NCBI GenBank assembly: GCA_024280935.1
Contig: JAJRPE010000115.1
Span: 12,256 to 76,255 of the forward strand
Reading direction: 5' to 3'
Origin: Candidatus Hydrogenedentota bacterium
GTDB taxonomy: Bacteria > Hydrogenedentota > Hydrogenedentia > Hydrogenedentales > JAEUWI01
DNA: 64,000 bases
In this document: piece by piece, positions 1 to 53,282 of the stretch
Numbering within the stretch: the stretch's first letter is position 1
Layout of the letters: the number at the start of each line of letters is the position of its first letter
Position numbers and translations under genes: made by a program
The notes under the pieces: model-generated
What the model saw: the letters and a program-made list of their open reading frames with translations, nothing else
Database searches by the model: none
What the model was told of the DNA's origin: nothing

Positions 1-2151
1 TTTTCGGAGTCCGCCGATATAGATAGTCTGTCCACTGGCGAGATGGGGTGTTGTTTGAATTTCACGTTTTTCCTCTACGGGGACACCATTCACGACCTGG
101 GAAGAGGTGCTTTCCTTCGCAAGAATCTCTGCGATAATGTGATCATCGTGGGTCACCTTGGGGGTCACGGTGAGGGTTGTGCCAATCGGCTTGAACTTGG
201 TGGTCGTTTGGCTACCACCCGCTTGGCTGGTTATCAAATCGACATAGGGGACTTCCGACGCGATGGTAATGGTTGCAGGTTGATTCTCGACGGTAATAAG
301 CTTGGGATTGGAAAGGAGGGTGGAATTGTTGTTGCGAACTTCCGCCTGAATTACACCACGCCAATTGATGTCGCCAGAGAGTAAGCCAAAGCTCAACATA
401 CTGGCCACGTTGTTGCCAACGCTCAGGTTACCATCCAAGCCCAATTCCTGCAATGTGCCCGTAAAGATCCCTGTATTGCCCGCCGCATCACGCCGACTCT
501 GACTCTGTACCGCACTAATCAACCAATCTACCCCGGTGTCCGCCGCATCAGAAAGAGTAATATCCACGATCATGGCATCAATGGCCACCTGCTTGACGGG
601 AATATCCAATTGCTCAAGCAGATCCGTTATCTGCTCGACGATGATAGGTATATCCGTAACCACCAGAATACGGGCACGCTCATCCACCGTAACCTGGCCT
701 ATCTCCTTGGTGAGGATCCCTTGAATAATCTGCACCATATCCGCCGGATTCGCGTAGTTCAACTTGATCGGCATCGTCACCGTAGGAAGCACGCTCTGCT
801 CCACATCGAGGCGCCTGGCCATCGTAAGGAGGGGAAGTATATGGTCGGTCGGCCCCGATACGATGATAGTGTTTGCAGCCTTATTTGAAGAAATACTAAT
901 GTAGGATTCAAATTCCGAGCCGCCGATGACATCCTTCAATGTGCTGGCAATATCCTCCGCCTCGGCAAATTCAATATCAACCACTTCGGTGATTCTATCC
1001 GCAGCGATGGCATCGCGGTAATCCTTGATGTGATAGATGCCCTCTTCTTCCACCATCCCCAAACCGTTCAAACGAAGGGCGGTCTCAATGGCCTGTTCAA
1101 GAGGAACGTTTTTGAGGTTCAGCGACACCGTGCCGACGAGATCGGCACCGGCAACCACATTGATGCCCGCCATGCTGGCAAGAATCTGAACCGCATTCAC
1201 CAATTCCATGTCGCGAAAATCGATCGTGACAGGCTGACGAAGGGGATTGCCTTTCCACACCTTATGGGTCGCTGGTCCCGCCGAGCCTTCCAGTGAAGGT
1301 GCCGAAGCCTCGATCATTTGTTTGGTAAGTGCTTTATTCGCCTCCGTGCTTTTTGTCACCTTGAGTTCCCGCTTCGCGGGCGGCTCAGGTTCTTCTGCTG
1401 CTTCGGCCTCCTCCACAACAGGTGTCTCCGAATCAGCGGTGCCTTCGGCGCTCTCATCATCCTGTGCTGCCAATGCGATCGTTTCATACGTCGCTGTACG
1501 CACATCGGCATCCCGTACCGAGCGCAGCATTGCATTCATCGCATCCCGCGAAGAGTCTCCCCACCAAGCCGCACTCTCGGTCGTATCTGAGAGGTTGGAC
1601 AATGCCAAAAGTTCTGCTTTCAGATCACCCGAAGTGACATCGCTATCCTTCTGAAGTGGATAGGGCGTTTCCACAACGTTAATAGAAAAACTCTGGTCTC
1701 CCCGACGCAGGCGCAATTCCATCACACCGTCGCTCTCATGAGTCTCCACCGTTACACCTGGAGCCAGTGAGAGATTAATTCGGGCCTCAGCCTCGTGCCC
1801 CCAACTGGATTCGACAAGTTCCAGTGACTTGAGCAAAGGATGGTTCACGGCGATCTGCCCGGCAAGGTCTGCTGGAATGCGGCTGTTCATGAGAAGCACG
1901 CGGCAGCCCTGGTCGGCTTCGTTTTCCGCAACGAGAACACCCCGAAGTGCTTCCACGTGCAGCTCCAAATGATTCTCACCTACCCCTTGCGCATCGACAC
2001 GATGGAGCGTTGCGCATTGTGGCACATGAGTTGTCGTGGCAATCTCCGTATTAGCGGCCCCAAACGCGGTGCCGAAACGGAGCGTCGGTGTCATGATGAG
2101 AAGCATTGCCAGTACGACAATAACTCCAGCATTCCATCGCTTCCTGATCAT
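1..2151 (-). CDS. pilQ: Type IV pilus secretin PilQ; the gene runs past the window start, so its C-terminal part is missing here
   Basis: Reverse-strand translation from the ATG at 2151 (GGAG RBS 9 nt upstream) gives a signal-peptide-like N-terminus, a secretin N-domain (DFRDMELVNAVQILASMAGINVV) and the hallmark secretin motif LLSNPKLITVENQPATITIASEVPYV near window position 200-320. It lies immediately downstream of pilP. It is not in the ORF track because it runs off the window. Confidence 0.8.
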   Translation of the reverse strand, partial: MIRKRWNAGVIVVLAMLLIMTPTLRFGTAFGAANTEIATTTHVPQCATLHRVDAQGVGENHLELHVEALRGVLVAENEADQGCRVLLMNSRIPADLAGQIAVNHPLLKSLELVESSWGHEAEARINLSLAPGVTVETHESDGVMELRLRRGDQSFSINVVETPYPLQKDSDVTSGDLKAELLALSNLSDTTESAAWWGDSSRDAMNAMLRSVRDADVRTATYETIALAAQDDESAEGTADSETPVVEEAEAAEEPEPPAKRELKVTKSTEANKALTKQMIEASAPSLEGSAGPATHKVWKGNPLRQPVTIDFRDMELVNAVQILASMAGINVVAGADLVGTVSLNLKNVPLEQAIETALRLNGLGMVEEEGIYHIKDYRDAIAADRITEVVDIEFAEAEDIASTLKDVIGGSEFESYISISSNKAANTIIVSGPTDHILPLLTMARRLDVEQSVLPTVTMPIKLNYANPADMVQIIQGILTKEIGQVTVDERARILVVTDIPIIVEQITDLLEQLDIPVKQVAIDAMIVDITLSDAADTGVDWLISAVQSQSRRDAAGNTGIFTGTLQELGLDGNLSVGNNVASMLSFGLLSGDINWRGVIQAEVRNNNSTLLSNPKLITVENQPATITIASEVPYVDLITSQAGGSQTTTKFKPIGTTLTVTPKVTHDDHIIAEILAKESTSSQVVNGVPVEEKREIQTTPHLASGQTIYIGGLRK

Positions 2152-2154
2152 AAT

Positions 2155-2703
2155 TTATAGCTCCTTCAGCTCTACGGGAATTTCAGCATCGCCCCATTTG
2201 AACCAAACCCGTTTCGGTTCAATCTTGGTTAGGACGACACCGTCCGCATACTGATGTCCTTCTGATACAACTTCATCATCAACAATAGCAACCGGTGCAT
2301 ATTCACTGTATAGAATGCCCGTTACGTTCTTCTGAGCGACATCGTAGACCGTCGTTCCAATCGGCGCGCCGAGCAGACCCTCAGATGAAACTCGGATTCG
2401 GCCAACCAGCGGCGTCATGGGACTCCGACTGATTCTTTCCTCTTCATACCGAAAGGTGACCACCTCAATATTTCTAAGGAGCTTATCGAGATCCACATCC
2501 ACCTTCTTGAGGCGTGTCGGCCCCTTGGAGGGTGCGCTCGGAGCATGGGCCGTTGCGACCTTCTGGACTCCGCCTGAGCTACCACCGCCACCAGGCGGTG
2601 CGCCCGACCCCCCTGCGATGAAGATCTGATAGACGAGAACAAGGACCAGGACGGTGCCCAGAACCCCAGCGACTATGATTTCTTTTTTATTTTCCTGGTT
2701 CAT
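2155..2703 (-). CDS. pilP: PilP-like pilus assembly lipoprotein
   Basis: 182 aa with an N-terminal TM/lipoprotein-like segment, a Gly/Pro/Ser linker and a C-terminal beta domain. Its position between pilO and pilQ supports the call. It overlaps pilO by 17 bp. Confidence 0.5.
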   Translation of the reverse strand: MNQENKKEIIVAGVLGTVLVLVLVYQIFIAGGSGAPPGGGGSSGGVQKVATAHAPSAPSKGPTRLKKVDVDLDKLLRNIEVVTFRYEEERISRSPMTPLVGRIRVSSEGLLGAPIGTTVYDVAQKNVTGILYSEYAPVAIVDDEVVSEGHQYADGVVLTKIEPKRVWFKWGDAEIPVELKEL

Positions 2704-3277
2704 TGCTTGCTACGCTCGCAGTGGGTGCCTGAATGAATCGAAAAGTGCTGAGATGAAACTGCGCCTCGGAAATTCCGGCAATTTCCTCTCCAATATCCAA
2801 GTTTGAGACCTTTAAGTAGCGCTTGTCACGCTCCAAGAGATTGATAAACTGCACGATATCGTGAAAACCGCCCCGCGCTATAATCTCATAGGGGATAGTT
2901 TCCTTATTCGTGTCCGTCTTGGTGGGCAGCTGAATCAGTTCAACACCCAAGCCGAGGCTGTTGGCATCGGCCTCGAATTGCTCAAGCAGCTTGGGAATGT
3001 CCCGCTCTTCGGGCAAGCGCTCTTCGAAGAGTTCCACAAGACGCTGCGCCTTGACGGCCTCCTCCTTAAACTCTTTGAATTTTGCCTTGGTTTCCCGCGC
3101 CGCCTTCAACTCCTTAGTGGCCTCCTTGAGGTCGTTCTGAACAACGACAAGCCGCTCTTGCTGCTTTTTGGCGATCCCAAAATAGAAGCCTCCGCAAAGC
3201 AGCGCTGTAACCGCAAGAACCCCGGCCACGAACGCCCAGTCTTTGGGAGTGACCGTGCCTTTGAAGAAATCAAACAT
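2687..3277 (-). CDS. pilO: PilO-like type IV pilus inner-membrane assembly protein
   Basis: 196 aa with a single N-terminal TM helix followed by a long coiled coil, as in PilO. Gene order pilM-N-O-P-Q. Confidence 0.6.
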   Translation of the reverse strand: MFDFFKGTVTPKDWAFVAGVLAVTALLCGGFYFGIAKKQQERLVVVQNDLKEATKELKAARETKAKFKEFKEEAVKAQRLVELFEERLPEERDIPKLLEQFEADANSLGLGVELIQLPTKTDTNKETIPYEIIARGGFHDIVQFINLLERDKRYLKVSNLDIGEEIAGISEAQFHLSTFRFIQAPTASVASNEPGK

Positions 3278-3951
3278 CAGTTTCCGCCTCCCGCTTCAAT
3301 TTCGTACTCCAACACGAAACCGCGAACCGCGTAGCCGTTGTACTCCGCGTCAAGAATTTGCGGACGGTCCAAGGTAAATATGCTCGCAAACTCAGGATCC
3401 TCCGTTGTGTTGAAGGTAAGGGGGTTGATCTTGTTTGAACCCTCTTCGTTGTTGATGACGTAGCCCGATATCTCAAGCATGGGCCGCTTTACATTGACCG
3501 TCTTTACCTTCTCTTTCTTGGTCCGCTTGTCGATCTCGGGCTTGCCTGTTTTCTCATCAATGACCACATGTTCTTCTCGAACCGTCTTGTAAGTCACCCA
3601 TATACGCTTGTACCAGAAATTCTCGGGCGTAAGCGAGGCCAAACCGTGCAGCTGCTTTGACCAAATAATACGGTCACTCAGGATTTCCTGAATCACATTA
3701 ATCTTGTTTTCCAATTGCAGCTTTTTTTCGCTGAGCGCGTTGTACTCGTCGACGACATCCTTCAGCTCGTCCAAACCTTTTTTCGCCTGCACCAATTCTT
3801 GTGTCCTGTCGCTGATTTCCCCCAGCTTGCCGAAGAACATGAGGCCCATGCCCGCAACCGCGAACGCAAGAAGCATCAAACTCAAGAGATGGGGCAAAGG
3901 CGTCCGCTTAATGGGCCGCAGTTCCTCTGGGAGCAGATTTACAACAATCAT
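3277..3951 (-). CDS. pilN: PilN-like type IV pilus assembly protein
   Basis: Starts MIVVNLLPEELRP, the INLLP PilN signature. One TM helix and a coiled coil. It overlaps pilM by 4 bp (ATGA) and pilO by 1 bp. Confidence 0.7.
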   Translation of the reverse strand: MIVVNLLPEELRPIKRTPLPHLLSLMLLAFAVAGMGLMFFGKLGEISDRTQELVQAKKGLDELKDVVDEYNALSEKKLQLENKINVIQEILSDRIIWSKQLHGLASLTPENFWYKRIWVTYKTVREEHVVIDEKTGKPEIDKRTKKEKVKTVNVKRPMLEISGYVINNEEGSNKINPLTFNTTEDPEFASIFTLDRPQILDAEYNGYAVRGFVLEYEIEAGGGN

Positions 3952-5393
3952 AGGTCAGCCATCCCGCGTGCTGCGAGTCCGACGGCAACCATGAATTGCG
4001 CCGGCTGTTCGAGCATTCTGCCCATTGACATATCGTCGGCCACGAATAGCGCACTATTGGTTGGATCCGCCACGTCGACCGACTCAACCCCCAACTCATC
4101 AAGCAGGGTGGTACATACAAGGGAGGAATGGGCGATGCCTCCGCTTATCACCAGCCGATCCACAGGGCGCTCGTAAAGTTGGTGTTCATAATAATCGAAG
4201 GAACGACGAATTTCAGTAACCATCTTCGCAAGTGACACAAGGACCGTCTCCCTTATGTCCGGCTCAACTTCCTCCGCCATCCCCATTGGCGAAGCCGCTT
4301 GGAGACCGGAAAAGGAATCATCAAAGCCACCCCCGAGTTCATCGTCAAGAGGATCCAACAGGGAACTGCCTCCAGGCGCGCTGATAGGTGCTACCGGTGC
4401 CGCTTCTCCAAAAGGATCGTCACCAAAATCGGTAATAGAATCGGGTGTCTGTATACCTTCACCAGCATCGCTGAAGGTATCATCAAGATTCTCCACGATG
4501 GGAACCGCCGATGCCTCCACCTCTTCCATCTCTTCCATCAGGGCATTCGCACCGAGAGCCTCGGCACCAGCCTCCTCCTTGAACAAAAACTCTTGCAGAC
4601 GGCTTTCCGCCTCCTCGTACTCGCAACGAAGATCTTTCGCGATAGCGTGAATCAACTCACGGGAACCCCAGTTTACATCGCGAATGAAGTTTGATATACC
4701 ATCTTTCACAAAGTGTATGCTTGCCGAAGTCAAACCAATATTGACCAGGGCCACCGTTTCGCCGACACGCAAAAAGTCGCATGCCTCGGCAGCATCCGCC
4801 AAAGCAAGGGAGTCTATCCCGAGGATGGCATACTCAAGATCAGCCGCATCCATAATCTGAACGCGGGAATCGATAATCTCGTGTTTGGCCGCCACCAGCA
4901 GCACTTTCAACTGTCGCTGACCACCCTCTTCCACCTCATCAAGCAACGCCCAATCCAACGACACTTCAGCCAAGTCGTAGGGAATGTTCTGACCTGCCTC
5001 GCGACTCACAATTTCGCCGAGCTGATCACGGCTTGACTCGGCATAACGCGGGTAGCGAATTACTGCTGTCTGACCAGGCAAGGCCCCCACAATCTGGCTG
5101 GAATTCAGGTTCATATTGACCAACGCCTCGCTCACGGCAGCAGCGTGGGCGACAACCGGATCGGCGTTCACCTGATTTCGGTCCACCTCAGCATAGCCCA
5201 CCTCGTCAATACAGAGGCGACCACCCCGACGAGACATCTGAACCGCCTTGACAGCGTAGGTGCCGATATCGAGGCCTATCGATTTCTTTGCCTTAAAGAA
5301 CAGCAATAAACCCAAGCTCCTCTGTGAACCGCGCAAGACGATGCCAGGTCGGGCCACAATGCTCCAAGGCAAACGCTCTTCGCGAAACGCCAA
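3948..5393 (-). CDS. pilM: PilM-like actin-fold ATPase with a roughly 100-aa acidic low-complexity insertion. The annotated start is probably over-extended; the real start is likely nearer KKSIGLDIGTYAVKAV
   Basis: IGLDIGTYAVKAVQMS is the PilM/FtsA phosphate-1 motif. An acidic run (EEAGAEALGANALMEEMEEVEA...DPLDDELGGGFDDSF) is inserted in mid-protein. It is the first gene of the pil operon. Confidence 0.75.
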   Translation of the reverse strand: MAFREERLPWSIVARPGIVLRGSQRSLGLLLFFKAKKSIGLDIGTYAVKAVQMSRRGGRLCIDEVGYAEVDRNQVNADPVVAHAAAVSEALVNMNLNSSQIVGALPGQTAVIRYPRYAESSRDQLGEIVSREAGQNIPYDLAEVSLDWALLDEVEEGGQRQLKVLLVAAKHEIIDSRVQIMDAADLEYAILGIDSLALADAAEACDFLRVGETVALVNIGLTSASIHFVKDGISNFIRDVNWGSRELIHAIAKDLRCEYEEAESRLQEFLFKEEAGAEALGANALMEEMEEVEASAVPIVENLDDTFSDAGEGIQTPDSITDFGDDPFGEAAPVAPISAPGGSSLLDPLDDELGGGFDDSFSGLQAASPMGMAEEVEPDIRETVLVSLAKMVTEIRRSFDYYEHQLYERPVDRLVISGGIAHSSLVCTTLLDELGVESVDVADPTNSALFVADDMSMGRMLEQPAQFMVAVGLAARGMADL

Positions 5394-14152: not shown

Positions 14153-14431
14153 AAAAAGCAACCCGCCTCCAGGGACTGACGCGGACCAATCATCTGGGGT
14201 ATGAGGAAAAAGCGTGGCTTCACAGGCTGTATCTCTTGAAACAAGGGCCACTTCAAGGTCCGTGGCTGTCCCGTCGTTGGCGAGAAGAGCGACGATTCTT
14301 TCGCAAACGACGGGACAGCTACGCCCGATAAGAGTGTCTGCCGTTGCACCAAGAGGACTCGCAAGATTCCAAGCAAACAAAAATAGACCACGCCGTTTTG
14401 GGCGCGTCAGTCCCTGAACTCCCTCCCAAAA

Positions 14432-44720: not shown

Positions 44721-46061
44721 TTACCTTGCGGCGATGTAATCCAACAACCGCCCGATATTCGCATTAAAATCCCGGAGCAATACCATGGGCACTTCGGGGT
44801 CTACGCCCTTTTTCTCATAAAAACCGAGCTGCTTGCTGTCGGGCTTCCGGGTCCAGTGTCCGGCCTCGCTAAGCTGGTCGCAGATCCCCGCAACCGTCTC
44901 CTTCGACGGCCTGTTCTCCTTCGGCTCCTTTGGCGCAGCGTGGGCCGTGCGATAGGCGTCCCCACCCTCGGACTGTATGGCATCGTAGGCTTTCTTCGCA
45001 CCCTGCGGATACCACGCCCCCTGCCAGGCATAACCGCTGCAGGCGTTGGCGAAGTCATAGACCTTTTCCGCTTTGTCCCGCCGACCATAGACCGGACGCT
45101 GGGTGCCGGGTTCGTAAAGGCGAGCATACTTCCCGTTTTCGAGCTTGTGGGCCTCGTACCATTCCAGCGCACGCCCCAGCGACGTGATATAGCGCTCATC
45201 GCCCGTCTCAACGAACAACGTCACGAGGGTGTCGCAGACCGCCGCCGATTCTGCCGGGGTATAGCCGGGCGGCTCAAACTTCCGCGCCCAGGCCGGTTCC
45301 AGGCTGTCGGGATCATATTGTTGCGCCCAGATGGACTCGCCGACTCCCCCCTGCAACTTCAGGATGCATTCGCCGCCGCGAAGGGCCGCCGCACGATACC
45401 GGTGGTCGCCTGTTTCGCGTTCCAGCTTGAAGAGGGCCGAAACGATATTGCTGAAGTTCCCGTCATTGAACGTAATATAGCGGCTGTAGCCTTTCCCTAA
45501 TGGATAGGCCTGGGGCCAGCCCCCGGAATCGGCGTACTGGGACGTGAGAATAAACGCGCCAATCCGATCAACGGCGGCCCGGTCCGCCGCCGCACCCGTA
45601 TGATGCCACCAGTCGATAAAAAAATTGAGGGTGTTGGTCGTTACGCCGTCATCGAAGGAAGCCCGTTTTGAAGGACCCGCAGCGGGCGAACCTTCGTGAT
45701 AAAATCCCCCTTCGGCCGATTGAAGACGGCACAGGGCCGCGTGGGCCTCCCCCGCCACGGCGATCCAGCGCGCATCATTCAGCACCCGCCCGGCGCGAAG
45801 ATAGATCCCGCCAGTTGTCGGTGTCGCCGGTGCCTGCACCGTAATCCAATCGTCGGGTATCGGGCGCCATTCTCCCCAGACGACTTTCTCATCCCGACTC
45901 CACGCCGTGCCCCAGCCACCCTGTCGCTGAAACTGCGCCATGCCGGTCAGCGCCTTGTCGAGGGTATCCAGCACACGCGCACGCAGGTCTTGTCCCTGAG
46001 CGGATGCCGTCGAAAGGCCAAGGAGCAATAAGACAAAGAATCGAAGACAATAGCGGGACAT
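44721..46061 (-). CDS. Secreted pectate lyase, PL10 (PelA/pectic-acid-lyase family)-like
   Basis: Signal peptide MSRYCLRFFVLLLLGLSTASA. ITFNDGNFSNIVSALF and GESIWAQQYD fit the PL10 pectic-acid-lyase pattern. Confidence 0.5.
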   Translation of the reverse strand: MSRYCLRFFVLLLLGLSTASAQGQDLRARVLDTLDKALTGMAQFQRQGGWGTAWSRDEKVVWGEWRPIPDDWITVQAPATPTTGGIYLRAGRVLNDARWIAVAGEAHAALCRLQSAEGGFYHEGSPAAGPSKRASFDDGVTTNTLNFFIDWWHHTGAAADRAAVDRIGAFILTSQYADSGGWPQAYPLGKGYSRYITFNDGNFSNIVSALFKLERETGDHRYRAAALRGGECILKLQGGVGESIWAQQYDPDSLEPAWARKFEPPGYTPAESAAVCDTLVTLFVETGDERYITSLGRALEWYEAHKLENGKYARLYEPGTQRPVYGRRDKAEKVYDFANACSGYAWQGAWYPQGAKKAYDAIQSEGGDAYRTAHAAPKEPKENRPSKETVAGICDQLSEAGHWTRKPDSKQLGFYEKKGVDPEVPMVLLRDFNANIGRLLDYIAAR

Positions 46062-46164
46062 AGCAGGTTTCCTGACGACAAATTCGAGGCCAGCCGAAAA
46101 TCGGCGATTGCCATGGAAGAACCCTAGCACGTAGCCGCAGGAACGGGCAACGGGGACTCCAAGC

Positions 46165-46549
46165 GGGGACTGCCTCGCCCAAGGTCGCGTTACTTGGTGA
46201 AGTGATCTTCGTGGCGAACACGTTCACTGAGGTATGGGATTACCCCTTCAGCAGGCGGGGCTGTCCCCAGACAAATAGCGCCCACGTCTCTCGTTTTGAG
46301 ACAGCACGCCGGGGACTGCCTCGCCCAAGGTCGCAGCACGCAGGGGTAGTAAACTTCGGGGCCAGCAAATCCACCAAGGTATGCAACGCCCACTTCAAAA
46401 GGCGGGGCTGTCCCCAGACAAATAGCGCCCTCGTCTCTCGTTTGGGGACAGCACGCCTCCTGAAGAGCTATTTCCTACTTGAAAAATTACATGCTGGACC
46501 ACAACGCTCGCTTCACTACACAACGTGGGCGTGGGCGAGGCAGTCCCCT
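46165..46549. repeat. REP/BIME-like array on the 3' side of the RAYT (ggggactgcctcgcccaaggtcgc units alternating with ggcggggctgtccccaga...tggggacag hairpins)
   Basis: Two forward REPs at 46165 and 46311 and an inverted REP at 46535-46549 (gggcgaggcagtcccc). Confidence 0.8.
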
Positions 46550-47177
46550 ATTTCATCTTCCGCCGCACCATTTCCTGAAACGCGAGACTGCCCAGTGGAC
46601 GCCCCCGATTCGTGTGGGACCGTATCTTCTTCACCATACCGACATCTTCAATCGCCACCAACAGGGTCTCTCGCCATTCATCGATACTGAACTGGCTCTT
46701 CCAGCGCGTCAGATTGAGCAACGCGTCGTCCACGCCATCGATGCAGTGGGCACGGGCGCTCGACCACGGGTGGTCCCAAGCGAATTCTTCCATGCCCGCC
46801 CGGACGGGATTCAATTCAACATACGCGAGCGCATTCAACATATGCGGCTCATCCATGGGACAGGAGAAGAAACGGCTTTGCCACAGATGGCCCACATGCT
46901 CGTACCGCTTGCCCAGATAGGCCGTATAACTTTGATGCGTCCCACCGACGGCTTTCGCAAGGGATTCTTCCCGTGCGGGCACACCAACCAGATGAACGTG
47001 GTTCGTCATCAGGCAATAGCCAAGAATCCGCAAACCGTGCTCTCGCGTGTGTTCTTTCAACAGCGTAAGATACTTGCGCCGGTCTTGCTCGTCGAAGAAA
47101 ACCTGCTGCTTCTGATTGCCCCGTTGGGTGACATGATGCGCAACCCCCGGAAGCACTATGCGTGCTGTTCTAGGCAT
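46548..47177 (-). CDS. REP-associated tyrosine transposase (RAYT / TnpA_REP, IS200-like Y1 HUH)
   Basis: ATG at 47177. IVLPGVAHHVTQRGNQKQQVFFDEQDRRKYLTLLKEHTREHGLRILGYCLMTNHVHLVGVP...YVELNPVRAGM carries the HUH motif (HVH) and a catalytic Tyr. REP arrays flank it on both sides. Confidence 0.8.
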   Translation of the reverse strand: MPRTARIVLPGVAHHVTQRGNQKQQVFFDEQDRRKYLTLLKEHTREHGLRILGYCLMTNHVHLVGVPAREESLAKAVGGTHQSYTAYLGKRYEHVGHLWQSRFFSCPMDEPHMLNALAYVELNPVRAGMEEFAWDHPWSSARAHCIDGVDDALLNLTRWKSQFSIDEWRETLLVAIEDVGMVKKIRSHTNRGRPLGSLAFQEMVRRKMK

Positions 47178-47196
47178 GATGTCATGGTAGCATAAC

Positions 47197-47733
47197 GGGG
47201 ACTGCCTCGCCCAAGGTCGCGACGCGCAGGAAAATCCACTTCGTGACGGACAGATCTGCTGCGGTATACAATGAAAACCCCAAGCAAGGCGGGGCTGTCC
47301 CCAGATCAAATAGCACCCGCGTCTCTTGTTTGGGGACAGTACGCCGGGGACTGCCTCACCCAAAGCCGCGACGTGCAGGGTATCCACTTCCTAACGGACA
47401 GGTCTGCTATGGTATGGAACGGAACCCCAAACAGGCGGGCTGTCCCCAGATCAAATAGCACCCGCGTCTCTTGTTTGGGGACAGTACGCCGGGGACTGCC
47501 TCGCCCAAAGCCGCGACGTGCAGGGTATCCACTTCCTAACGGACAGGTCTGCTATGGTATGGAACGGAACCCCAAACAGGCGGGGCTGTCCCCAGATCAA
47601 ATAGCACCCGCGTCTCTTGTTTGGGGACAGCCCCGCCTTCTGAAAGACCATTTTCTACTCAAGGATATACATGCTGGCCACAACGCGCACGACACTTGGG
47701 CAACGTGGGCCTGGGCGAGGCAGTCCCCAGAAT
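47197..47733. repeat. REP array on the 5' side of the RAYT, including three tandem units of about 146 bp (47197-47640) and a terminal inverted REP
   Basis: The unit is ggggactgcctcRcccaaRgYcgcgacgtgcagggtatccacttcctaacggacaggtctgctatggtatggaacggaaccccaaacaggcggggctgtccccagatcaaatagcacccgcgtctcttgtttggggacagtacgcc, repeated three times. Confidence 0.85.
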
Positions 47734-47823
47734 CCCCACAAATCAAACACATCCCCGTCTCAGGCGTTATAGGGGTAGCTACCTGCGGTGAAAACGGCAG
47801 AAAACGGAATCCCGGAGCAATAG

Positions 47824-48357
47824 ATGACCACTGAACATGAACGTCGCGCAGACCGGGTGCGGGAGGCCTTAAACCGGTACGAGGCCCCCCTCATTCGCTA
47901 TGCAACACGTCTAACGGGCAACAGCGAATTGGCACGGGATATCGTGCAGGACACCTTCGTGAAGCTATGCACGGCGGATTGGGCAAAAATTGAGGCCCAC
48001 CTCGCCCCCTGGCTTTACCGGGTCTGTCGAAACCGCGCCTTCGATGTCCTGAAAAAGGAAAAGCGTATGCAACCCCTGGCAGAAGGACAAGCGGAGGCCC
48101 GACCGGACAACAAACCGGCTCCGGCCGCCGTGGCAGAAGGGCACGAGGCCGAGGACATGGTCCACGCAGTCCTCGCGGAGCTCCCGGAAAAGAACCAAGA
48201 GATATTCCGCCTAAAATTCCAACATGAACTTTCCTACAAAGAAATCAGCGAGGTCACGGGCCACGAAGTGAACAACATTCGCTACGTCATCCATACGACG
48301 CTCAAAACCCTCCGACAACAACTCCAGGGCCGCCTCGATCCGGCCCTCGGACAGTAA
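47824..48357 (+). CDS. ECF (RpoE-like) sigma-70 family sigma factor
   Basis: Sigma region 2 (LARDIVQDTFVKL, WLYRVCRNRAFDVLKK) and region 4 (ELSYKEISEVTGHEVNNIRYVIHTTLKTLRQQL). Confidence 0.8.
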   Translation: MTTEHERRADRVREALNRYEAPLIRYATRLTGNSELARDIVQDTFVKLCTADWAKIEAHLAPWLYRVCRNRAFDVLKKEKRMQPLAEGQAEARPDNKPAPAAVAEGHEAEDMVHAVLAELPEKNQEIFRLKFQHELSYKEISEVTGHEVNNIRYVIHTTLKTLRQQLQGRLDPALGQ

Positions 48358-48368
48358 GGAGTCCCACC

Positions 48369-51077
48369 ATGCGACTCGATAAAGCCGACCCCAAATTGAT
48401 GGATTATGTCCTGGGTGAACTGGATACCGAGGAAGCCGAAGCCCTCGCCACCGCCCTGCAAAAAGAAGAAAACAAGGATGCCAAAGCCTTGGTGGAAGAG
48501 CTACGCGGTGTCGCGGAAACGACACGACGAATTCTCCATGAGGATGATGGCGAGCCCGCCCTGAGCGACCTACAGCGTGCCACGATATTCGGGCAGGTGG
48601 AGGAAACACTGGAGAATGTGGTGGCTGGGCCTGCGCGGTGGGGCCGAGTGTCCACATGGCTGACTGTCGCCGCAGCGATTTCCGTTGTCGCGGCATTAGG
48701 TTTTTCCAATGTGGTATACAATTATGCACCATTGGGCATGAAGATGGCCGCCGACTCCCCTCCCCCTCGATTGCCGGGTGATGAGGTCGGGCAGCGCCTA
48801 CGACGCCGCTACATTCAGTCTGAGCACAAGTTACCGCGACTTTCAAACGAGTCGGCCGTACCTGGTGGCAGCGTATTGGTGTCACCTTCGCCCGAACCGG
48901 CTCCCGCAGAAACACCCGCGAAGCCCATTCGGAGCGGCTTCGAAATTCACGATTTGACGATGACCTATGGCACCGACAACCTTTACGCGAAGGAAACGGA
49001 GGTCGCTACTAAAACATCGCCGCCAGCAGCGGCAGATGCACTCTTGGAGTTTGGAATAGAATCGGGTGAGCCGCAAAGTATCGAATTAGGTTCACGGTAC
49101 CTACTTCAAGAACGGACTGACATAGCAGGCCAAAACGGGCCTACACTCGACGGCGTGGGCGTACCCAATGTTGAGCAGCGCACACGGCTGGGCACCAAGG
49201 CAGATTTCACCGATGATGTCTCGGTGTATATCGAGTTTGACGGTTACAACAACTGGGGCGAAACATTCAATGTTGACGTACCAGCCAATCTCCCTATGCG
49301 CACTCCAGCCCTCGAGGAGGAAGACGGGGACGGCTTGGACGTGGGCAACATGTCGAGGAAAGCCAAGCTCTCCAAGCGCATCATCCCAAAGGACGTTGTC
49401 ATCGATGCAGAAACCGCGAGGCAGCTCGAATCCTTGGGATATCTAGACGATAGCCGCTCCCTCGGGGATAAGGTCGCCTCCAAACTGCCCACCGACTGGA
49501 CCCCTCTCGTCGACGTGACCATACCGTTTAACAACGGCCAGTGGCAATGGAACACCCCCGACACAAAAAACACCCAAATCGTGGGCGGACCCGGCTCGGA
49601 GACCTACGTGAAGGTCACGGGTGTGAAGCCCTTCAGCGAGGTGAAGGCGGAGCCCCTCTCCACCTTCAGCATTGATGTGGGCACGGCGGCCTACAGCAAC
49701 GTGCGGCGTTTCCTGACGAACGGCCATATGCCGCCCGCGGATGCGGTCCGTATTGAGGAAATGTTGAACTACTTCGACTACGACTACCCCCAGCCGACGG
49801 ACCACCATCCCTTCGCGGTAGTGGTCCATGGCGCCCCCGCGCCGTGGGACCAAAATCACCGGCTGGTGCGCATCGGCGTGAAGGGCAAGGAAGTGGCCCG
49901 GGAGGAACGTCCCCCGGCGAACCTGGTCTTTCTCCTCGATGTTTCCGGCTCCATGGGCGATGCGAACAAGCTGCCCCTCGTGAAGGAATCCATGAAGACC
50001 CTCCTCATCAACCTCACGCCTCGTGACCGGGTGGGCATCGTCACCTACGCGGGCAATGCGCGGAAGGTCCTCGACCTCACCCCGTGCAGCGAGCGTAGCG
50101 TGATCGCCCAGGCCATTGAGGGCCTCCGTTCCGGCGGCAGCACCAATGGCGGCGGCGGCATCCAGATGGCCTACGACATGGCCCAGTCGGCCTACAATCC
50201 CGAAGGCATTAACCGGGTCATCCTGGCGACGGACGGCGACTTCAACGTGGGCAACACCTCCCACGGTGGACTCATGGGCATGATTGAGGCACGGGCGAAG
50301 TCCGGGGTCTTCCTCACGGCCCTCGGCTTTGGCATGGGCAATCTGAAGGACTCCACCCTGGAGCAACTGGCGGACCGGGGCAATGGAAACTATGCCTACA
50401 TCGACACCCACGCGGAGGCGCGGAAGGCTCTGGGCAGGCAGCTTTCGGGCACGCTTTACACCATCGCGAAGGACGTGAAGATTCAGGTGGAGTTCAATCC
50501 CAACCGGATCTCCCACTACCGTCTGCTGGGCTATGAAAACCGTGCCCTCGCCGCACGAGATTTCAACGACGACACGAAGGATGCGGGCGAGATCGGCGCG
50601 GGCCACACAGTCACGGCGCTGTATGAAATCATTCCCCGTGGCACGGGGCCCATGCCGCTCGGTGTGGACCCGCTGAAATATTCGGAGACGGGCACGCCGG
50701 GAGATACGCTTCAGTCGGGGCCAGAGGTAGCCCTCCCAGCAGGACCCTACCTCGTGGGTGAAGACGGAGTCGCCATCCCCGACCCGGCCTACGAATGGCT
50801 CACGGTGAAGATGCGCTACAAGCAGCCGACCGGCAGCAAAAGCACCAAGCTGGAAGTGCCCCTGCTCCACATCAGCGGCGACCTCCGCGAGACAGACGCG
50901 GATTTCCGCTTCGCCGCCGCCGTGGCCGCCTTTGGACAGGTGCTGCGGAATCCGGGCTACCGCCATCCTGGCAACTTCGACCGCATCCTCGACCTGGCCC
51001 GCCCGGCGACCAAGGGCGACGCCGACCGCGAGGCCTTCCTGGATCTGGTAATTACGGCAAAGACACTCTCGAACTAA
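48369..51077 (+). CDS. Anti-sigma factor N-domain + TM + periplasmic YfbK-like von Willebrand A domain protein
   Basis: N-terminus MRLDKADPKLMDYVLGELDTEEAEALATAL is anti-sigma-like. TM helix TWLTVAAAISVVAALGF. vWA MIDAS motif NLVFLLDVSGSMGD...GGSTNGGGGI...VILATDGDFNVG. YfbK-like C-terminus. Confidence 0.75.
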   Translation: MRLDKADPKLMDYVLGELDTEEAEALATALQKEENKDAKALVEELRGVAETTRRILHEDDGEPALSDLQRATIFGQVEETLENVVAGPARWGRVSTWLTVAAAISVVAALGFSNVVYNYAPLGMKMAADSPPPRLPGDEVGQRLRRRYIQSEHKLPRLSNESAVPGGSVLVSPSPEPAPAETPAKPIRSGFEIHDLTMTYGTDNLYAKETEVATKTSPPAAADALLEFGIESGEPQSIELGSRYLLQERTDIAGQNGPTLDGVGVPNVEQRTRLGTKADFTDDVSVYIEFDGYNNWGETFNVDVPANLPMRTPALEEEDGDGLDVGNMSRKAKLSKRIIPKDVVIDAETARQLESLGYLDDSRSLGDKVASKLPTDWTPLVDVTIPFNNGQWQWNTPDTKNTQIVGGPGSETYVKVTGVKPFSEVKAEPLSTFSIDVGTAAYSNVRRFLTNGHMPPADAVRIEEMLNYFDYDYPQPTDHHPFAVVVHGAPAPWDQNHRLVRIGVKGKEVAREERPPANLVFLLDVSGSMGDANKLPLVKESMKTLLINLTPRDRVGIVTYAGNARKVLDLTPCSERSVIAQAIEGLRSGGSTNGGGGIQMAYDMAQSAYNPEGINRVILATDGDFNVGNTSHGGLMGMIEARAKSGVFLTALGFGMGNLKDSTLEQLADRGNGNYAYIDTHAEARKALGRQLSGTLYTIAKDVKIQVEFNPNRISHYRLLGYENRALAARDFNDDTKDAGEIGAGHTVTALYEIIPRGTGPMPLGVDPLKYSETGTPGDTLQSGPEVALPAGPYLVGEDGVAIPDPAYEWLTVKMRYKQPTGSKSTKLEVPLLHISGDLRETDADFRFAAAVAAFGQVLRNPGYRHPGNFDRILDLARPATKGDADREAFLDLVITAKTLSN

Positions 51078-51078
51078 G

Positions 51079-51420
51079 GGGACTGCCTCGCCCAAGGCCA
51101 CGTAGCTCAGGGGTATGGGCTACGTGGCCAGCAACACAGTTTCAGGTTGGGGGCTGCTCGGTCAACAGGCGGGGCTGTCCCCAGAACAAAAGGCGGCGGA
51201 AGGAATTGGGACAGCCCCGCCTATTGAAGTCCTCTCCATAGTTTTAGCGAGCTTGCTCGCCAAAACGCACACCTCCCTTCCACAACACAGGCTTGGGCGA
51301 GGCAGTCCCCGGGACTGCCTCGCCCAAGGCCACGTAGTTCAACAAGATAAGCTACGTGGCCAACGGCACCGTTTCAGGTTGGGGGCTGCTCGGTCAACAG
51401 GCGGGGCTGTCCCCAGAACA
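51079..51420. repeat. Third REP/BIME cluster of the RAYT-associated family, with a head-to-head REP pair at 51296-51330 and a gaatagtgaatt microrepeat at 51420-51470
   Basis: ggggactgcctcgcccaaggccacg appears twice. gggcgaggcagtccccgggactgcctcgccc is an inverted dimer. Confidence 0.8.
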
Positions 51421-51980
51421 CACGCAAATTGAATTGAGAATAGTGAATTTTGAATAGTGAATTGAATCAGCAGACTCGTGACCCCAAGCGCGCTGCTTCA
51501 GCAAGATAGGCTGCAAGGGAAAGTAGGACAGCCGTCTGTCACGACAGGCGAGATGCCTGTCCTACATTCTTGTACAAGCGCGCACCAATACAACAAGGCC
51601 AACTCCGCAACAGTGTGCTGTCTCCAGACGGTGTCCCAGAACACACCAGCAGGTGGCGCATGGGACGGACTCGCGCCCATGACATTGGGTCTCGAAACGG
51701 ATACGTCTTGGCTAGCCGGACACCGCAATCTGGGCAAAAACCGTAGATGCGCGTGCCCGTCCCGGTGGAGTTTTGGGAAGAGTCCTTTGTCAGACCGATG
51801 CCACACACCCTGTCCCATCGGGACATGCCCCCGCGTTATGGCGCGACCATAGTACACCCGGCACTGAATTCAATCCGCGCCACACATATTCGCCATCGCG
51901 TCGTCCTGCGGGGGTACGTCCCTGAGCGCTGTATTTCCATAAATGGCGGTCGATAAAGGAGGGAGACCTCTTCCCAGCTC

Positions 51981-53282
51981 TCACTCGCCTTCCACCAATT
52001 CGCCCAACAACATAATCGCGCCCGCGTACCAGCGTGTGCCGTCAAAGCGGGCTGGGTTGTCCATAGTGTTTCCGTTCTTGCTCAGGATAGCCACCTTGTC
52101 GGGCTGTTCGGGATGAATCTCTACCGTCACCCTGTGAACGTCATCAGGCAGATCGGCGGCGAGTTTCAGGGTCGCGAGTCGGTGGTAGGTGCAATAGGCG
52201 TCGAAGCGAGGTTTTATCACGGGCGCTTCATCGTCCACGCGCACGATCATCTGGCCGCAATCGGGACCGAGGATATCGTAAATCGCGGCATAGATTCCCT
52301 TGAAGGAAAAGCTCATGGTTTCGCCGGGGGTGCTGGCCTGCCACATTCGGGGCATCCGGTTTTGGAAACGCTTGGCGATATCGTTCTCTTCTGGTTTCAA
52401 TTCCTCCCAGCCCGCGCTCAGCATAGCCCGGTCCAAGGGAATCATGATGGCATTCTCCCAATTATCCGCAACATAAGGAGCGGGCAATTCGTGGGGACCA
52501 GGCTCCCCCGCCTTCTTGATAGATTTCATCGAGCGCGCTACGGCATCAAGATAGAGCACGTGCCCACCCTCGGGATAGGGATGGACGCCATCGCCGGAAA
52601 ACAGCACCTTTCCTGCGAGGGCTTCCCTCTCTGCCTCGGTCTTCGGCTTTGGCCCCTTGAATACCACCGTACCCGCTTCCTCCATGCACGCCACCTCCAG
52701 GCCCATGTGAATCGAGGGAATCCCATAGTGATCCGCGATGACCTCCATGGCGCTCGCCGCACGGGGGTACTTTCCGCCCTGCAAGTCCTTTAACATGCCC
52801 TGGGTCAGGGTGTAGACAAAGCAAATATCGGTGGAGGGGTTCGCTTGGAAGGTCTTTCGGACGATGCCTTCCATGGACCGATAGATGCTTTCCGGCGGGG
52901 TGCCGCCATCGTTCACCGCGAACTCCACGAAGAGCAAGTCCGGCTTGTGCTGCAACACGTCCTGTTCCAGCCGAAACACGCCAAGGCCCGAACCGGTGCC
53001 ACCAATCGCAGCGTTGATTTGGGAGACTTTCGCCTTGGGGTACTGATCTTGAAACCAAGCCAGCGTCTTGGGCCGCCAACCGGGCTGGGCGGTGATGCTT
53101 CCGCCAAGATAGCCGATGCGGACTGTCTCCCCCGCTTCGAGCTTGGCGAAGAAATTTGGCAGGCCGTCGCGGACGGTAGACTCGACCGCATCGCGAAGTC
53201 GATAGGCGGTCTTCTCTTCCGCGCCCTGCGCGACCAAAGTGAGCAACATCATCAACACGAACAAGAAACAGCGATTTGTCAT
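51981..53282 (-). CDS. Secreted SGNH/GDSL hydrolase family protein (carbohydrate esterase-like)
   Basis: Signal peptide. IGYLGGSITAQPGW is a GDSL block I motif, with a downstream DGVHP-like block V. Confidence 0.65.
   Translation of the reverse strand: MTNRCFLFVLMMLLTLVAQGAEEKTAYRLRDAVESTVRDGLPNFFAKLEAGETVRIGYLGGSITAQPGWRPKTLAWFQDQYPKAKVSQINAAIGGTGSGLGVFRLEQDVLQHKPDLLFVEFAVNDGGTPPESIYRSMEGIVRKTFQANPSTDICFVYTLTQGMLKDLQGGKYPRAASAMEVIADHYGIPSIHMGLEVACMEEAGTVVFKGPKPKTEAEREALAGKVLFSGDGVHPYPEGGHVLYLDAVARSMKSIKKAGEPGPHELPAPYVADNWENAIMIPLDRAMLSAGWEELKPEENDIAKRFQNRMPRMWQASTPGETMSFSFKGIYAAIYDILGPDCGQMIVRVDDEAPVIKPRFDAYCTYHRLATLKLAADLPDDVHRVTVEIHPEQPDKVAILSKNGNTMDNPARFDGTRWYAGAIMLLGELVEGE

Follow-up and report, generated by a model that had tools for sequence, protein, structure and literature searches.

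The DNA considered here, 64,000 nt from a Candidatus Hydrogenedentota bacterium (assembly GCA_024280935.1, contig JAJRPE010000115.1; hereafter the window), carries one copy of a gene for an HUH/Y1 tyrosine transposase that lies between two arrays of a short repeat. Taken together our results indicate that this locus is probably a TIRtron, that is, a TIRYT gene situated between arrays of a lineage-specific, non-autonomous foldback repeat. The class has been described under three names, as TIRYT/TIRtron (PMC3733652), as TnpA-Y1 subclass 2.1 (PMC6006769) and as Group 1 of the REP (repetitive extragenic palindrome)-associated tyrosine transposases, or RAYTs (PMC5581495). Within this known class the locus is set apart by its lineage-specific foldback repeat together with the tandem amplification of its half-units.

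The transposase gene lies on the minus strand at 46548..47177. Its predicted product, which starts with MPRTARIVLPGVAHHVTQRGN, is 209 amino acids (aa) long, one fewer than the 210 aa given by an initial sequence-only reading in which the locus had been described as a RAYT of the TnpA_REP type bracketed by its own REP/BIME arrays. A Pfam search matched Y1_Tnp (PF01797) at residues 14-121 with 48.1 bits against a cut-off of 23 (E 1.6e-12), and the assignment to the Y1/HUH transposases made in that reading was thereby upheld. In an alignment with 35 homologues the HUH motif (N59-H60-V61-H62), the catalytic Tyr119 within YVELNP (119-124), and the WQ (99-100) and WSSA (138-141) motifs were all invariant, and the C-terminal helical domain was conserved from WSSA to the GRPLG with which it ends. 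A search of PDB with the protein sequence returned no match, making structure prediction and a fold search necessary. The AlphaFold2 model built on the 35 homologues (pLDDT 93.6) has a confident helical C-terminal domain at residues 141-208, and its top PDB match in Foldseek was 4ER8_A, the E. coli TnpA_REP bound to a REP hairpin (E 5e-7), followed by the IS608 and ISDra2 TnpA structures 2A6O, 2VJV and 2XO6 at about 1e-4. These results support the view that the gene encodes an intact HUH/Y1 enzyme of the RAYT lineage.

That the best fold match is E. coli TnpA_REP, and that REP_Tyr_transpos (NF047646) was the sole NCBIfam match, would also be expected of a canonical RAYT/REP/BIME system, in which a domesticated TnpA_REP of Group 2 or 3 spreads a palindromic REP to hundreds of intergenic copies; the inverted repeat copies that flank the gene, and the BIME-like arrays of alternating elements, point the same way. 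Tests of family membership, however, largely refute this explanation. The NCBIfam score of 60.8 bits is below the cut-off of 80, and BLASTP alignments with E. coli RAYT b0228 (19% identity over 98 aa; E 5e-4) and with the Pseudomonas Group 3 RAYT pfs3939 (25% over 87 aa; E 4e-6) cover only the core, as against 43-46% identity over the full length to TIRYTs: 46% to pca3049 (E 1.5e-59), 45% to aba2776 (E 9e-59) and 43% to gsu2396 (E 2e-55), all reference sequences having been rebuilt from Additional file 5 of Di Nocera et al. (PMC3733652). The motifs read NHVH and YVELNP and not DH[LF]H and YI[HV]xNP, and the full set of NHVH, WQ, YVELNP and SS is that of subclass 2.1, which Quentin et al. (2018) define by NHVH / W[EQ] / Y[IV]ELNP / 'SS' (PMC6006769, Table 1) and take to be the same as Bertels Group 1 and probably also as the TIRYTs that Di Nocera et al. 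(2013) described. The transposase belongs to the TIRYT, Group 1 RAYT or subclass 2.1 family, and not to the REP-type RAYTs to which the sequence-only reading had assigned it.

The repeat that accompanies the gene was resolved into a composite element. Its 20-nt core, GGGGACTGCCTCGCCCAAGG, occurs 10 times in the window at up to 3 mismatches, always within 46165-51329, and gave 0 matches in 100 shuffled sequences. A second motif, GGCGGGGCTGTCCCC, which differs from the reverse complement of GGGGACTGCCTCGCCCAAGG at two positions only, has 8 occurrences in the same places (a ninth scan match is the GGGGACTGCCTCGCCCAAGG motif itself). We found that GGGGACTGCCTCGCCCAAGG is the terminal inverted repeat (TIR) of foldback elements of 233-243 bp. 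A full element contains four copies of a 15-mer centred on GGGGAC(A/T)G, two of which form the inverted termini (GGGGACTGCCTCGCC), while the other two, close variants of the terminal motif, form the inverted arms of a central hairpin (GGGGACAGCCCCGCC). The left 145 nt of the element are referred to here as the L-half, and the right ~90 nt as the R-half.

The element is seen most clearly in E3, a gene-less and complete foldback of 233 nt (51078..51310, plus strand, from sequence and single-stranded DNA folding) whose first base directly follows the stop codon of a VWA/YfbK gene. It consists of GGGGACTGCCTCGCCCAAGG at the left end, a ~70-nt spacer, a central hairpin (GGCGGGGCTGTCCCC, a 26-nt loop and GGGACAGCCCCGCC), a second ~70-nt spacer and CTTGGGCGAGGCAGTCCCC at the right end, and its fold as single-stranded DNA, at -70.4 kcal/mol (z -8.0), includes a terminal stem of 17 bp. 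Head-to-head with it lies E4, a truncated L-half (51310..51420, plus strand) recognised by repeat finding, inspection of the sequence, nhmmer and folding. The junction of the two (51292-51328) is a perfect 18+1+18 palindrome (dG -22.3, z -9.0), and the E3/E4 cluster (51078-51420), 3.3 kb from the transposase locus, is thus the third cluster with a perfect head-to-head dimer that had been noticed at the outset. An AT-rich 14-nt tandem repeat (TGAATTGAGAATAG x 2.6; Tandem Repeats Finder, TRF) directly follows E4 at 51421-51470, in surroundings of 57-60% GC.

On both sides of the gene the same parts are arranged in arrays. Array E1, 3' of the gene (46165..46548, plus strand; repeat finding and nhmmer with L and R profiles), has the structure L-L-R, with L-halves of 146 nt each at 46165-46310 and 46311-46456 and an R-half at 46457-46548; it ends in inverted GGGGACTGCCTCGCCC termini and folds as single-stranded DNA at -91.8 kcal/mol (z -6.6). 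Array E2, 5' of the gene (47197..47728, plus strand; TRF and nhmmer), is L-L-L-R, with L-halves at 47197-47345, 47346-47490 and 47491-47636 and an R-half at 47637-47728. TRF reported 3.0 copies of a 145-nt period at 47196-47630 with 92% matches, in agreement with the triple tandem first described for this side, and units 2 and 3 are 99% identical. The bracketing of the gene by its own repeat arrays, in inverted copies, was likewise borne out. Between E1 and E2 the junction reads ...GTCCCC, 19 nt, ATG...TAG overlapping GGGGAC..., the gene's stop codon and the flanking repeat overlapping in the last base of the repeat. This resembles the E3/E4 junction in kind, with a gene inside, and the gene-adjacent termini are oriented opposite to the termini of the gene-less elements. 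Finally, a diverged but complete foldback element of 243 nt, E5, was found on the minus strand at 14172..14414 (nhmmer E 0.0048, pattern scan, fold and alignment). It occupies the intergenic space separating nusB from a PHP-domain gene, ~100 nt past the nusB stop codon and 32 kb from the transposase gene; its termini (GGGACTGACGCG...CGCGTCAGTCCC) carry the same variant at both ends, its central hairpin is CTGTCCCGTCGTT...AACGACGGGACAG, and its architecture is that of the other elements (fold -61.7 kcal/mol, z -7.0). The terminal stems of E3 and E5 comprise 14-17 bp. The gene-less copies at 3.3 kb (E3/E4) and 32 kb (E5) from the gene point weakly to dispersal of the element.

This anatomy bears on the canonical RAYT explanation as well. 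A strong hairpin does alternate with the repeat, as had been claimed (GGCGGGGCTGTCCCC, a 24-nt loop and GGGGACAGCCCCGCC; dG -23.5 kcal/mol, z -7.4). The '24-bp palindromic REP' of the sequence-only reading did not hold up, since its 24- and 26-mers fold at only -1.6 and -1.8 kcal/mol (z +0.95 and +1.5), the level of shuffled sequence, and the repeat is palindromic solely as inverted pairs ~200 nt apart or where copies meet head-to-head. In place of a GTAG-footed REP hairpin there is a non-palindromic TIR related to the GGGGWSAS motif discussed below. The 20-24-nt repeat forms no hairpin, no GT[AG]G stands at the foot of the conserved hairpins, and the other 59 kb of the window have no copies save one diverged element. 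Together with the protein data this makes a canonical RAYT/REP/BIME system very unlikely. A miniature inverted-repeat element of a DDE transposon was also considered and rejected; TIRs are present, but no target-site duplication was visible on inspection of the sequence flanking E1/E2, E3/E4 or E5. We further discarded a hairpin just inside the terminus as a conserved feature (-14.5 kcal/mol in E3/E4, but -4.3 with z +0.5 in E2-type units), and covariation was not used as evidence, the four elements being too few and E5 being misaligned by one column at its right end.

Across the family the repeat motif accompanies the gene. Di Nocera et al. (2013) reported that the TIRs flanking TIRYT genes share GGGGWSAS, and that some TIRs are moderately abundant families found in dimers or clusters (PMC3733652). 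In the window GGGGACAG, in the arms of the central hairpins ~100-120 nt from each end of the gene, fits this consensus exactly, and GGGGACTG, located 19 nt upstream of the gene and again overlapping its stop codon, fits at 7/8 positions. We fetched 80 homologous loci from species-representative genomes of Hydrogenedentota, Planctomycetota, Acidobacteriota, Geobacter, Omnitrophota and others. In 78 of them the density of GGGACWG was 3.0/kb in the 300-400 nt beside the gene versus 0.33/kb elsewhere, a 9-fold difference, with a forward-to-reverse ratio of 57:14 upstream and 16:55 downstream. An inverted repeat brackets the gene in 62/76 loci, 13 of which possess additional repeat copies more than 1 kb away. 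The association of GGGACWG with the gene in several phyla suggests that the protein recognises the motif, and speaks against a host function. Few copies are present locally, in agreement with the ~12 copies per replicon that Bertels et al. give for the 16-mers flanking Group 1 genes, a figure far below those of Groups 2 and 3 (PMC5581495). At three loci of Bryobacterales and Terriglobia (L077, L081 and L108) we also observed 8-9-nt tandem repeats containing a partial motif within 300 nt of the gene, such as (GGGGAGATC)n and (AACGACGG)n leading into GGGGACAG, and tandem amplification beside the TIR may be a trait that recurs in the family.

Three relatives from Hydrogenedentota carry the gene between repeats of the same layout, with protein identities of 69% (L032), 69% (L113) and 62% (L114). 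All three have tandem or foldback repeats around the gene whose sequences have co-diverged, the termini being GGGGACTGCACCGAC paired with GGGGACAGCCCCGAC in L032 and L113, and GGGGACAGGCTCCCGAGCC in L114. As the layout is the same while the sequences have diverged together, the composite arrangement is conserved in the clade and is no accident of one contig or assembly; both the foldback repeat and the tandem amplification of its half-units are specific to the lineage. No synteny was found between the neighbour genes of the window and those of the 80 homologous loci.

A second, fragmented assembly of the same population (GCA_021647925.1; locus L001) is 99.4% identical to the window over the gene and E1 and has the transposase gene at the same site, with two L units upstream of the gene versus three in the window, and with its contig ending inside E1. 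The differing unit number and the contig end would suit the notion that the arrays were made or distorted by short-read metagenome assembly. We regard this as extremely improbable, given that arrays lie on both sides of the gene in both assemblies and that the same architecture recurs, in different sequences, in the three independent relatives, which come from other projects. Over 1.2 kb the two assemblies differ by 6 mismatches, every one of them within ~22 nt of a single hairpin loop, that of the central hairpin in unit L1 (46258-46300 in the window, 3500-3560 in L001), at the end of the L001 contig. These could represent true variation of the loop, or the assembler could have crossed into a different repeat copy, in which case further copies would be suggested for that genome.

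The gene probably has its own promoter abutting the repeat, and its mRNA would then be leaderless, judging from the 19-nt spacer between repeat and ATG (47178..47196, minus strand). This spacer contains a -10-like TACCAT box at 47184-47189, 6 nt before the ATG, and the -35 position falls inside the repeat. TTGCTAC(C/T)AT precedes the ATG in the window, L032 and L113, and family-wide a TTGACA-like box directly follows the TIR, with a -10-like box 6-8 nt before the ATG. At L034, L035, L040, L041, L096 and other loci the 60 nt upstream show a TTGACA-like box after the TIR hairpin and a conserved (A)TCATG start, an arrangement that points to leaderless mRNAs in the family and to physical coupling of promoter and TIR. 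A consensus promoter scan did not call the predicted promoter and gave nothing above expectation.

The elements might instead be host structural or regulatory sequences, i.e. terminators, mRNA stabilisers or protein-binding sites that were expanded by slippage or recombination and are no longer substrates of a Y1 enzyme. Their positions would suit such a role, E3 coming directly after the VWA stop codon and E5 ~100 nt after that of nusB, and so would their very stable foldbacks throughout (z -6.6 to -8.0) and the equal length of the tandem units, which is typical of slippage. However, no T-tract follows the hairpins, a terminator scan found 3 versus 2.3 expected, and the elements match no known RNA family: in an Rfam scan of 45500-52000 we obtained one sub-threshold chance match, to sX13, with 23 bits against a gathering score of 50. 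As the catalytic residues are moreover intact and invariant, and the motif tracks the gene across phyla, we consider a host function quite improbable, and somewhat less so than a canonical RAYT.

A further possibility is an autonomous IS200-like insertion sequence (IS), with the gene and its terminal repeats moving as one unit, of which the arrays and the gene-less elements would be decay products or deletion derivatives resembling miniature inverted-repeat elements, as opposed to a repeat population that is kept up. Parts of the family do provide evidence of this kind. Two gene-plus-TIR units (L063 and L081) that lie 5 Mb apart on one Bryobacterales chromosome (OZ252030.1) are 97.4% identical, two others (L033 and L099) within one Hydrogenedentota metagenome-assembled genome are 88.8% identical, and the similarity of such paralogous units starts and stops exactly at the TIRs, so that the whole unit appears to be copied at times in the manner of an insertion sequence. 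Neighbour genes are non-syntenic among relatives, and Group 1 has a duplicate rate of 6.3%, the highest among true RAYT groups (Bertels et al., PMC5581495). An IS-like life style is therefore possible for part of the TIRYT family, as far as these comparisons of sequence go. For the present locus it is unlikely, though less so than any of the other explanations weighed above, in that there is a single gene copy in 64 kb at the same site in two assemblies, the motif around the catalytic Tyr is Y...NP and not the Y...Q of IS200, and the gene-adjacent termini face opposite to the gene-less ones, E3 thus being no simple internal deletion.

How the TIRtron arrangement could have arisen can be sketched from IS608 TnpA and E. 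coli TnpA_REP, the mechanisms of which are well established and serve here as analogies. The TIRYT enzyme would recognise and bind the repeat motifs on folded single-stranded DNA, Tyr119 would cut, and the enzyme would rejoin the ends, thereby mobilising the gene-less elements E3/E4 and E5. Within an element two candidate sites of the same orientation lie 145 nt (one L-half) apart, one at the terminus and one in the central hairpin's right arm, and we infer that cutting at the first and joining it to the second, or the reverse, would result in the gain or loss of exactly one half-unit, which would account for the twofold and threefold arrays beside the gene. The gene-bearing unit reads central-arm ... 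terminus, gene, terminus ... central-arm, and the gene-less unit, which reads terminus ... central hairpin ... terminus, is a circular permutation of it. Such a permutation would be expected if a circular junction intermediate existed, and is not in itself proof of one. A bolder proposal, which we think possible but doubtful, is that a Hydrogenedentota Group 1 RAYT/TIRYT has spawned a REPIN-like foldback replicator with four sites that is cut and rejoined at GGGGAC(A/T)G, in which case the arrays, the head-to-head junction and the permutation would be footprints of circular single-stranded DNA, and the gene, with its -35 position within the repeat, would be autoregulated through binding of the repeat by the enzyme. 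If true, the locus would represent a ready substrate map for the largest RAYT group for which there are no assays.

Several points weigh against interpreting the locus as a TIRtron with a mobile partner repeat. The tandem half-units could have come about through replication slippage or unequal recombination without the enzyme, and the difference of two versus three units may be a short-read assembly collapse of units that are 99% identical. The description of the system as 'active or recently active' in the sequence-only reading stands accordingly as a suggestion, prompted by the near-identity of the units and by that same difference. In the 64-kb window all members of the exact repeat family lie within 5 kb of the gene, the one diverged element being the sole addition. 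The GGGGACTGCCTCGCCCAAGG 20-mer had 0 matches in 185,579 species-representative genomes (the source species not being among them), and a 19-nt degenerate pattern gave 30 matches in JGI metagenomes, each single and without the partner motif, which by our own rough estimate is about the number expected by chance in a collection of that size. Six-frame translations of the elements compared with 5.8 billion proteins revealed no spurious open reading frames made of the repeat, a weak negative since gene callers called none in the L001 arrays either. To our knowledge no TIRYT or subclass 2.1 protein has a demonstrated activity. In the vicinity of subclass 2.1 genes Quentin et al. detected no REP-like sequences, and they report for this subclass a C-terminal helix-turn-helix (HTH)-like domain (Bac_DnaA_C / HTH_23 / HTH_28; PMC6006769), for which we obtained no Pfam match in the C-terminus of the transposase even at E 10; the published TIRYTs aba2776 and sml4509 likewise had no Pfam HTH match in the same scan.

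Elsewhere in the window we made two observations on neighbouring genes. From 47345 to 50055 the window and the second assembly share only 92.9% identity with 13 gaps, in a stretch that covers an extracytoplasmic function (ECF) sigma factor (47824-48357) and the N-terminal half of the VWA/YfbK-like gene (48369-51077), part of whose N-terminal region could not be aligned to L001; the transposase locus and a pilus-gene contig are 99.4-99.7% identical. This may reflect a locally hypervariable sigma/anti-sigma-like pair beside the arrays, or else strain mixing in one assembly. In addition, a type IV pilus assembly cluster with pilM/pilO-like genes (1774-4929; L112 gene calls) is present and is unrelated to the transposase finding.

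In comparison with known systems, the locus shares with other TIRYTs the protein signature (NHVH, WQ, Y[IV]ELNP, the WSS tail and the C-terminal GRPLG region), the 43-46% full-length identity to published members, the GGGGWSAS inverted repeats that bracket the gene with one overlapping the stop codon, a low-copy repeat family in dimers or clusters, and the occasional IS-like unit duplication that is seen in other genomes. It differs from them in that the repeat has developed into a 233-243-bp foldback that contains the motif four times and has a conserved central hairpin, 145-nt half-units form tandem amplifications both 5' and 3' of the gene, the gene-adjacent termini are opposite to the orientation common in the family, and the protein, at 209 aa versus a median of 238, is without the distal basic tail. 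The RAYT-REPIN systems of Pseudomonas and Enterobacteria (Group 2/3; Bertels & Rainey 2011, PMC3116915; E. coli TnpA_REP, PDB 4ER8) resemble it in the HUH/Y1 fold, with 4ER8 as best structural match, in a gene flanked by inverted copies of its own repeat, in a non-autonomous unit made of an inverted repeat pair that folds into a long hairpin (E3 z -8.0, E5 z -7.0), and in BIME-like arrays of alternating orientation. In contrast to those systems, the protein here belongs to Group 1, the repeat by itself does not form a hairpin and lacks a GTAG foot, the spacer measures ~195 nt versus tens of nt, and with 10 cores and one diverged element in the window the hundreds of copies are not evident. With the IS200/IS605 elements (IS608 and ISDra2 TnpA) there is in common the HUH/Y1 catalytic core, the lack of a visible target-site duplication at the element ends, single-stranded DNA and hairpins as likely substrates by analogy, and a tandem, circularly permuted arrangement that would be compatible with a circular junction intermediate. 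Unlike these elements, the locus has Y...NP versus Y...Q, inverted-repeat ends versus distinct left and right subterminal hairpins, no tnpB, and an extra C-terminal domain.

The locus leaves the picture of how TIRtron-type systems work unchanged. We found no description of Hydrogenedentota as a host phylum of the class in the literature cited here. Among domesticated-looking Y1 transposases the Group 1 RAYTs/TIRYTs are the largest branch and occur in ~15% of strains (Quentin et al., PMC6006769), and for this group the published surveys are at odds on partner repeats, no substrate or activity having been shown. Our data add 78 loci in several phyla to the 26 published cases of the GGGGWSAS observation. 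The Hydrogenedentota locus and its relatives represent a clear case in which GGGGACWG has been built into a gene-less foldback that is amplified beside the gene and also present elsewhere, and they supply defined candidate oligonucleotide substrates and junctions for this group of enzymes.

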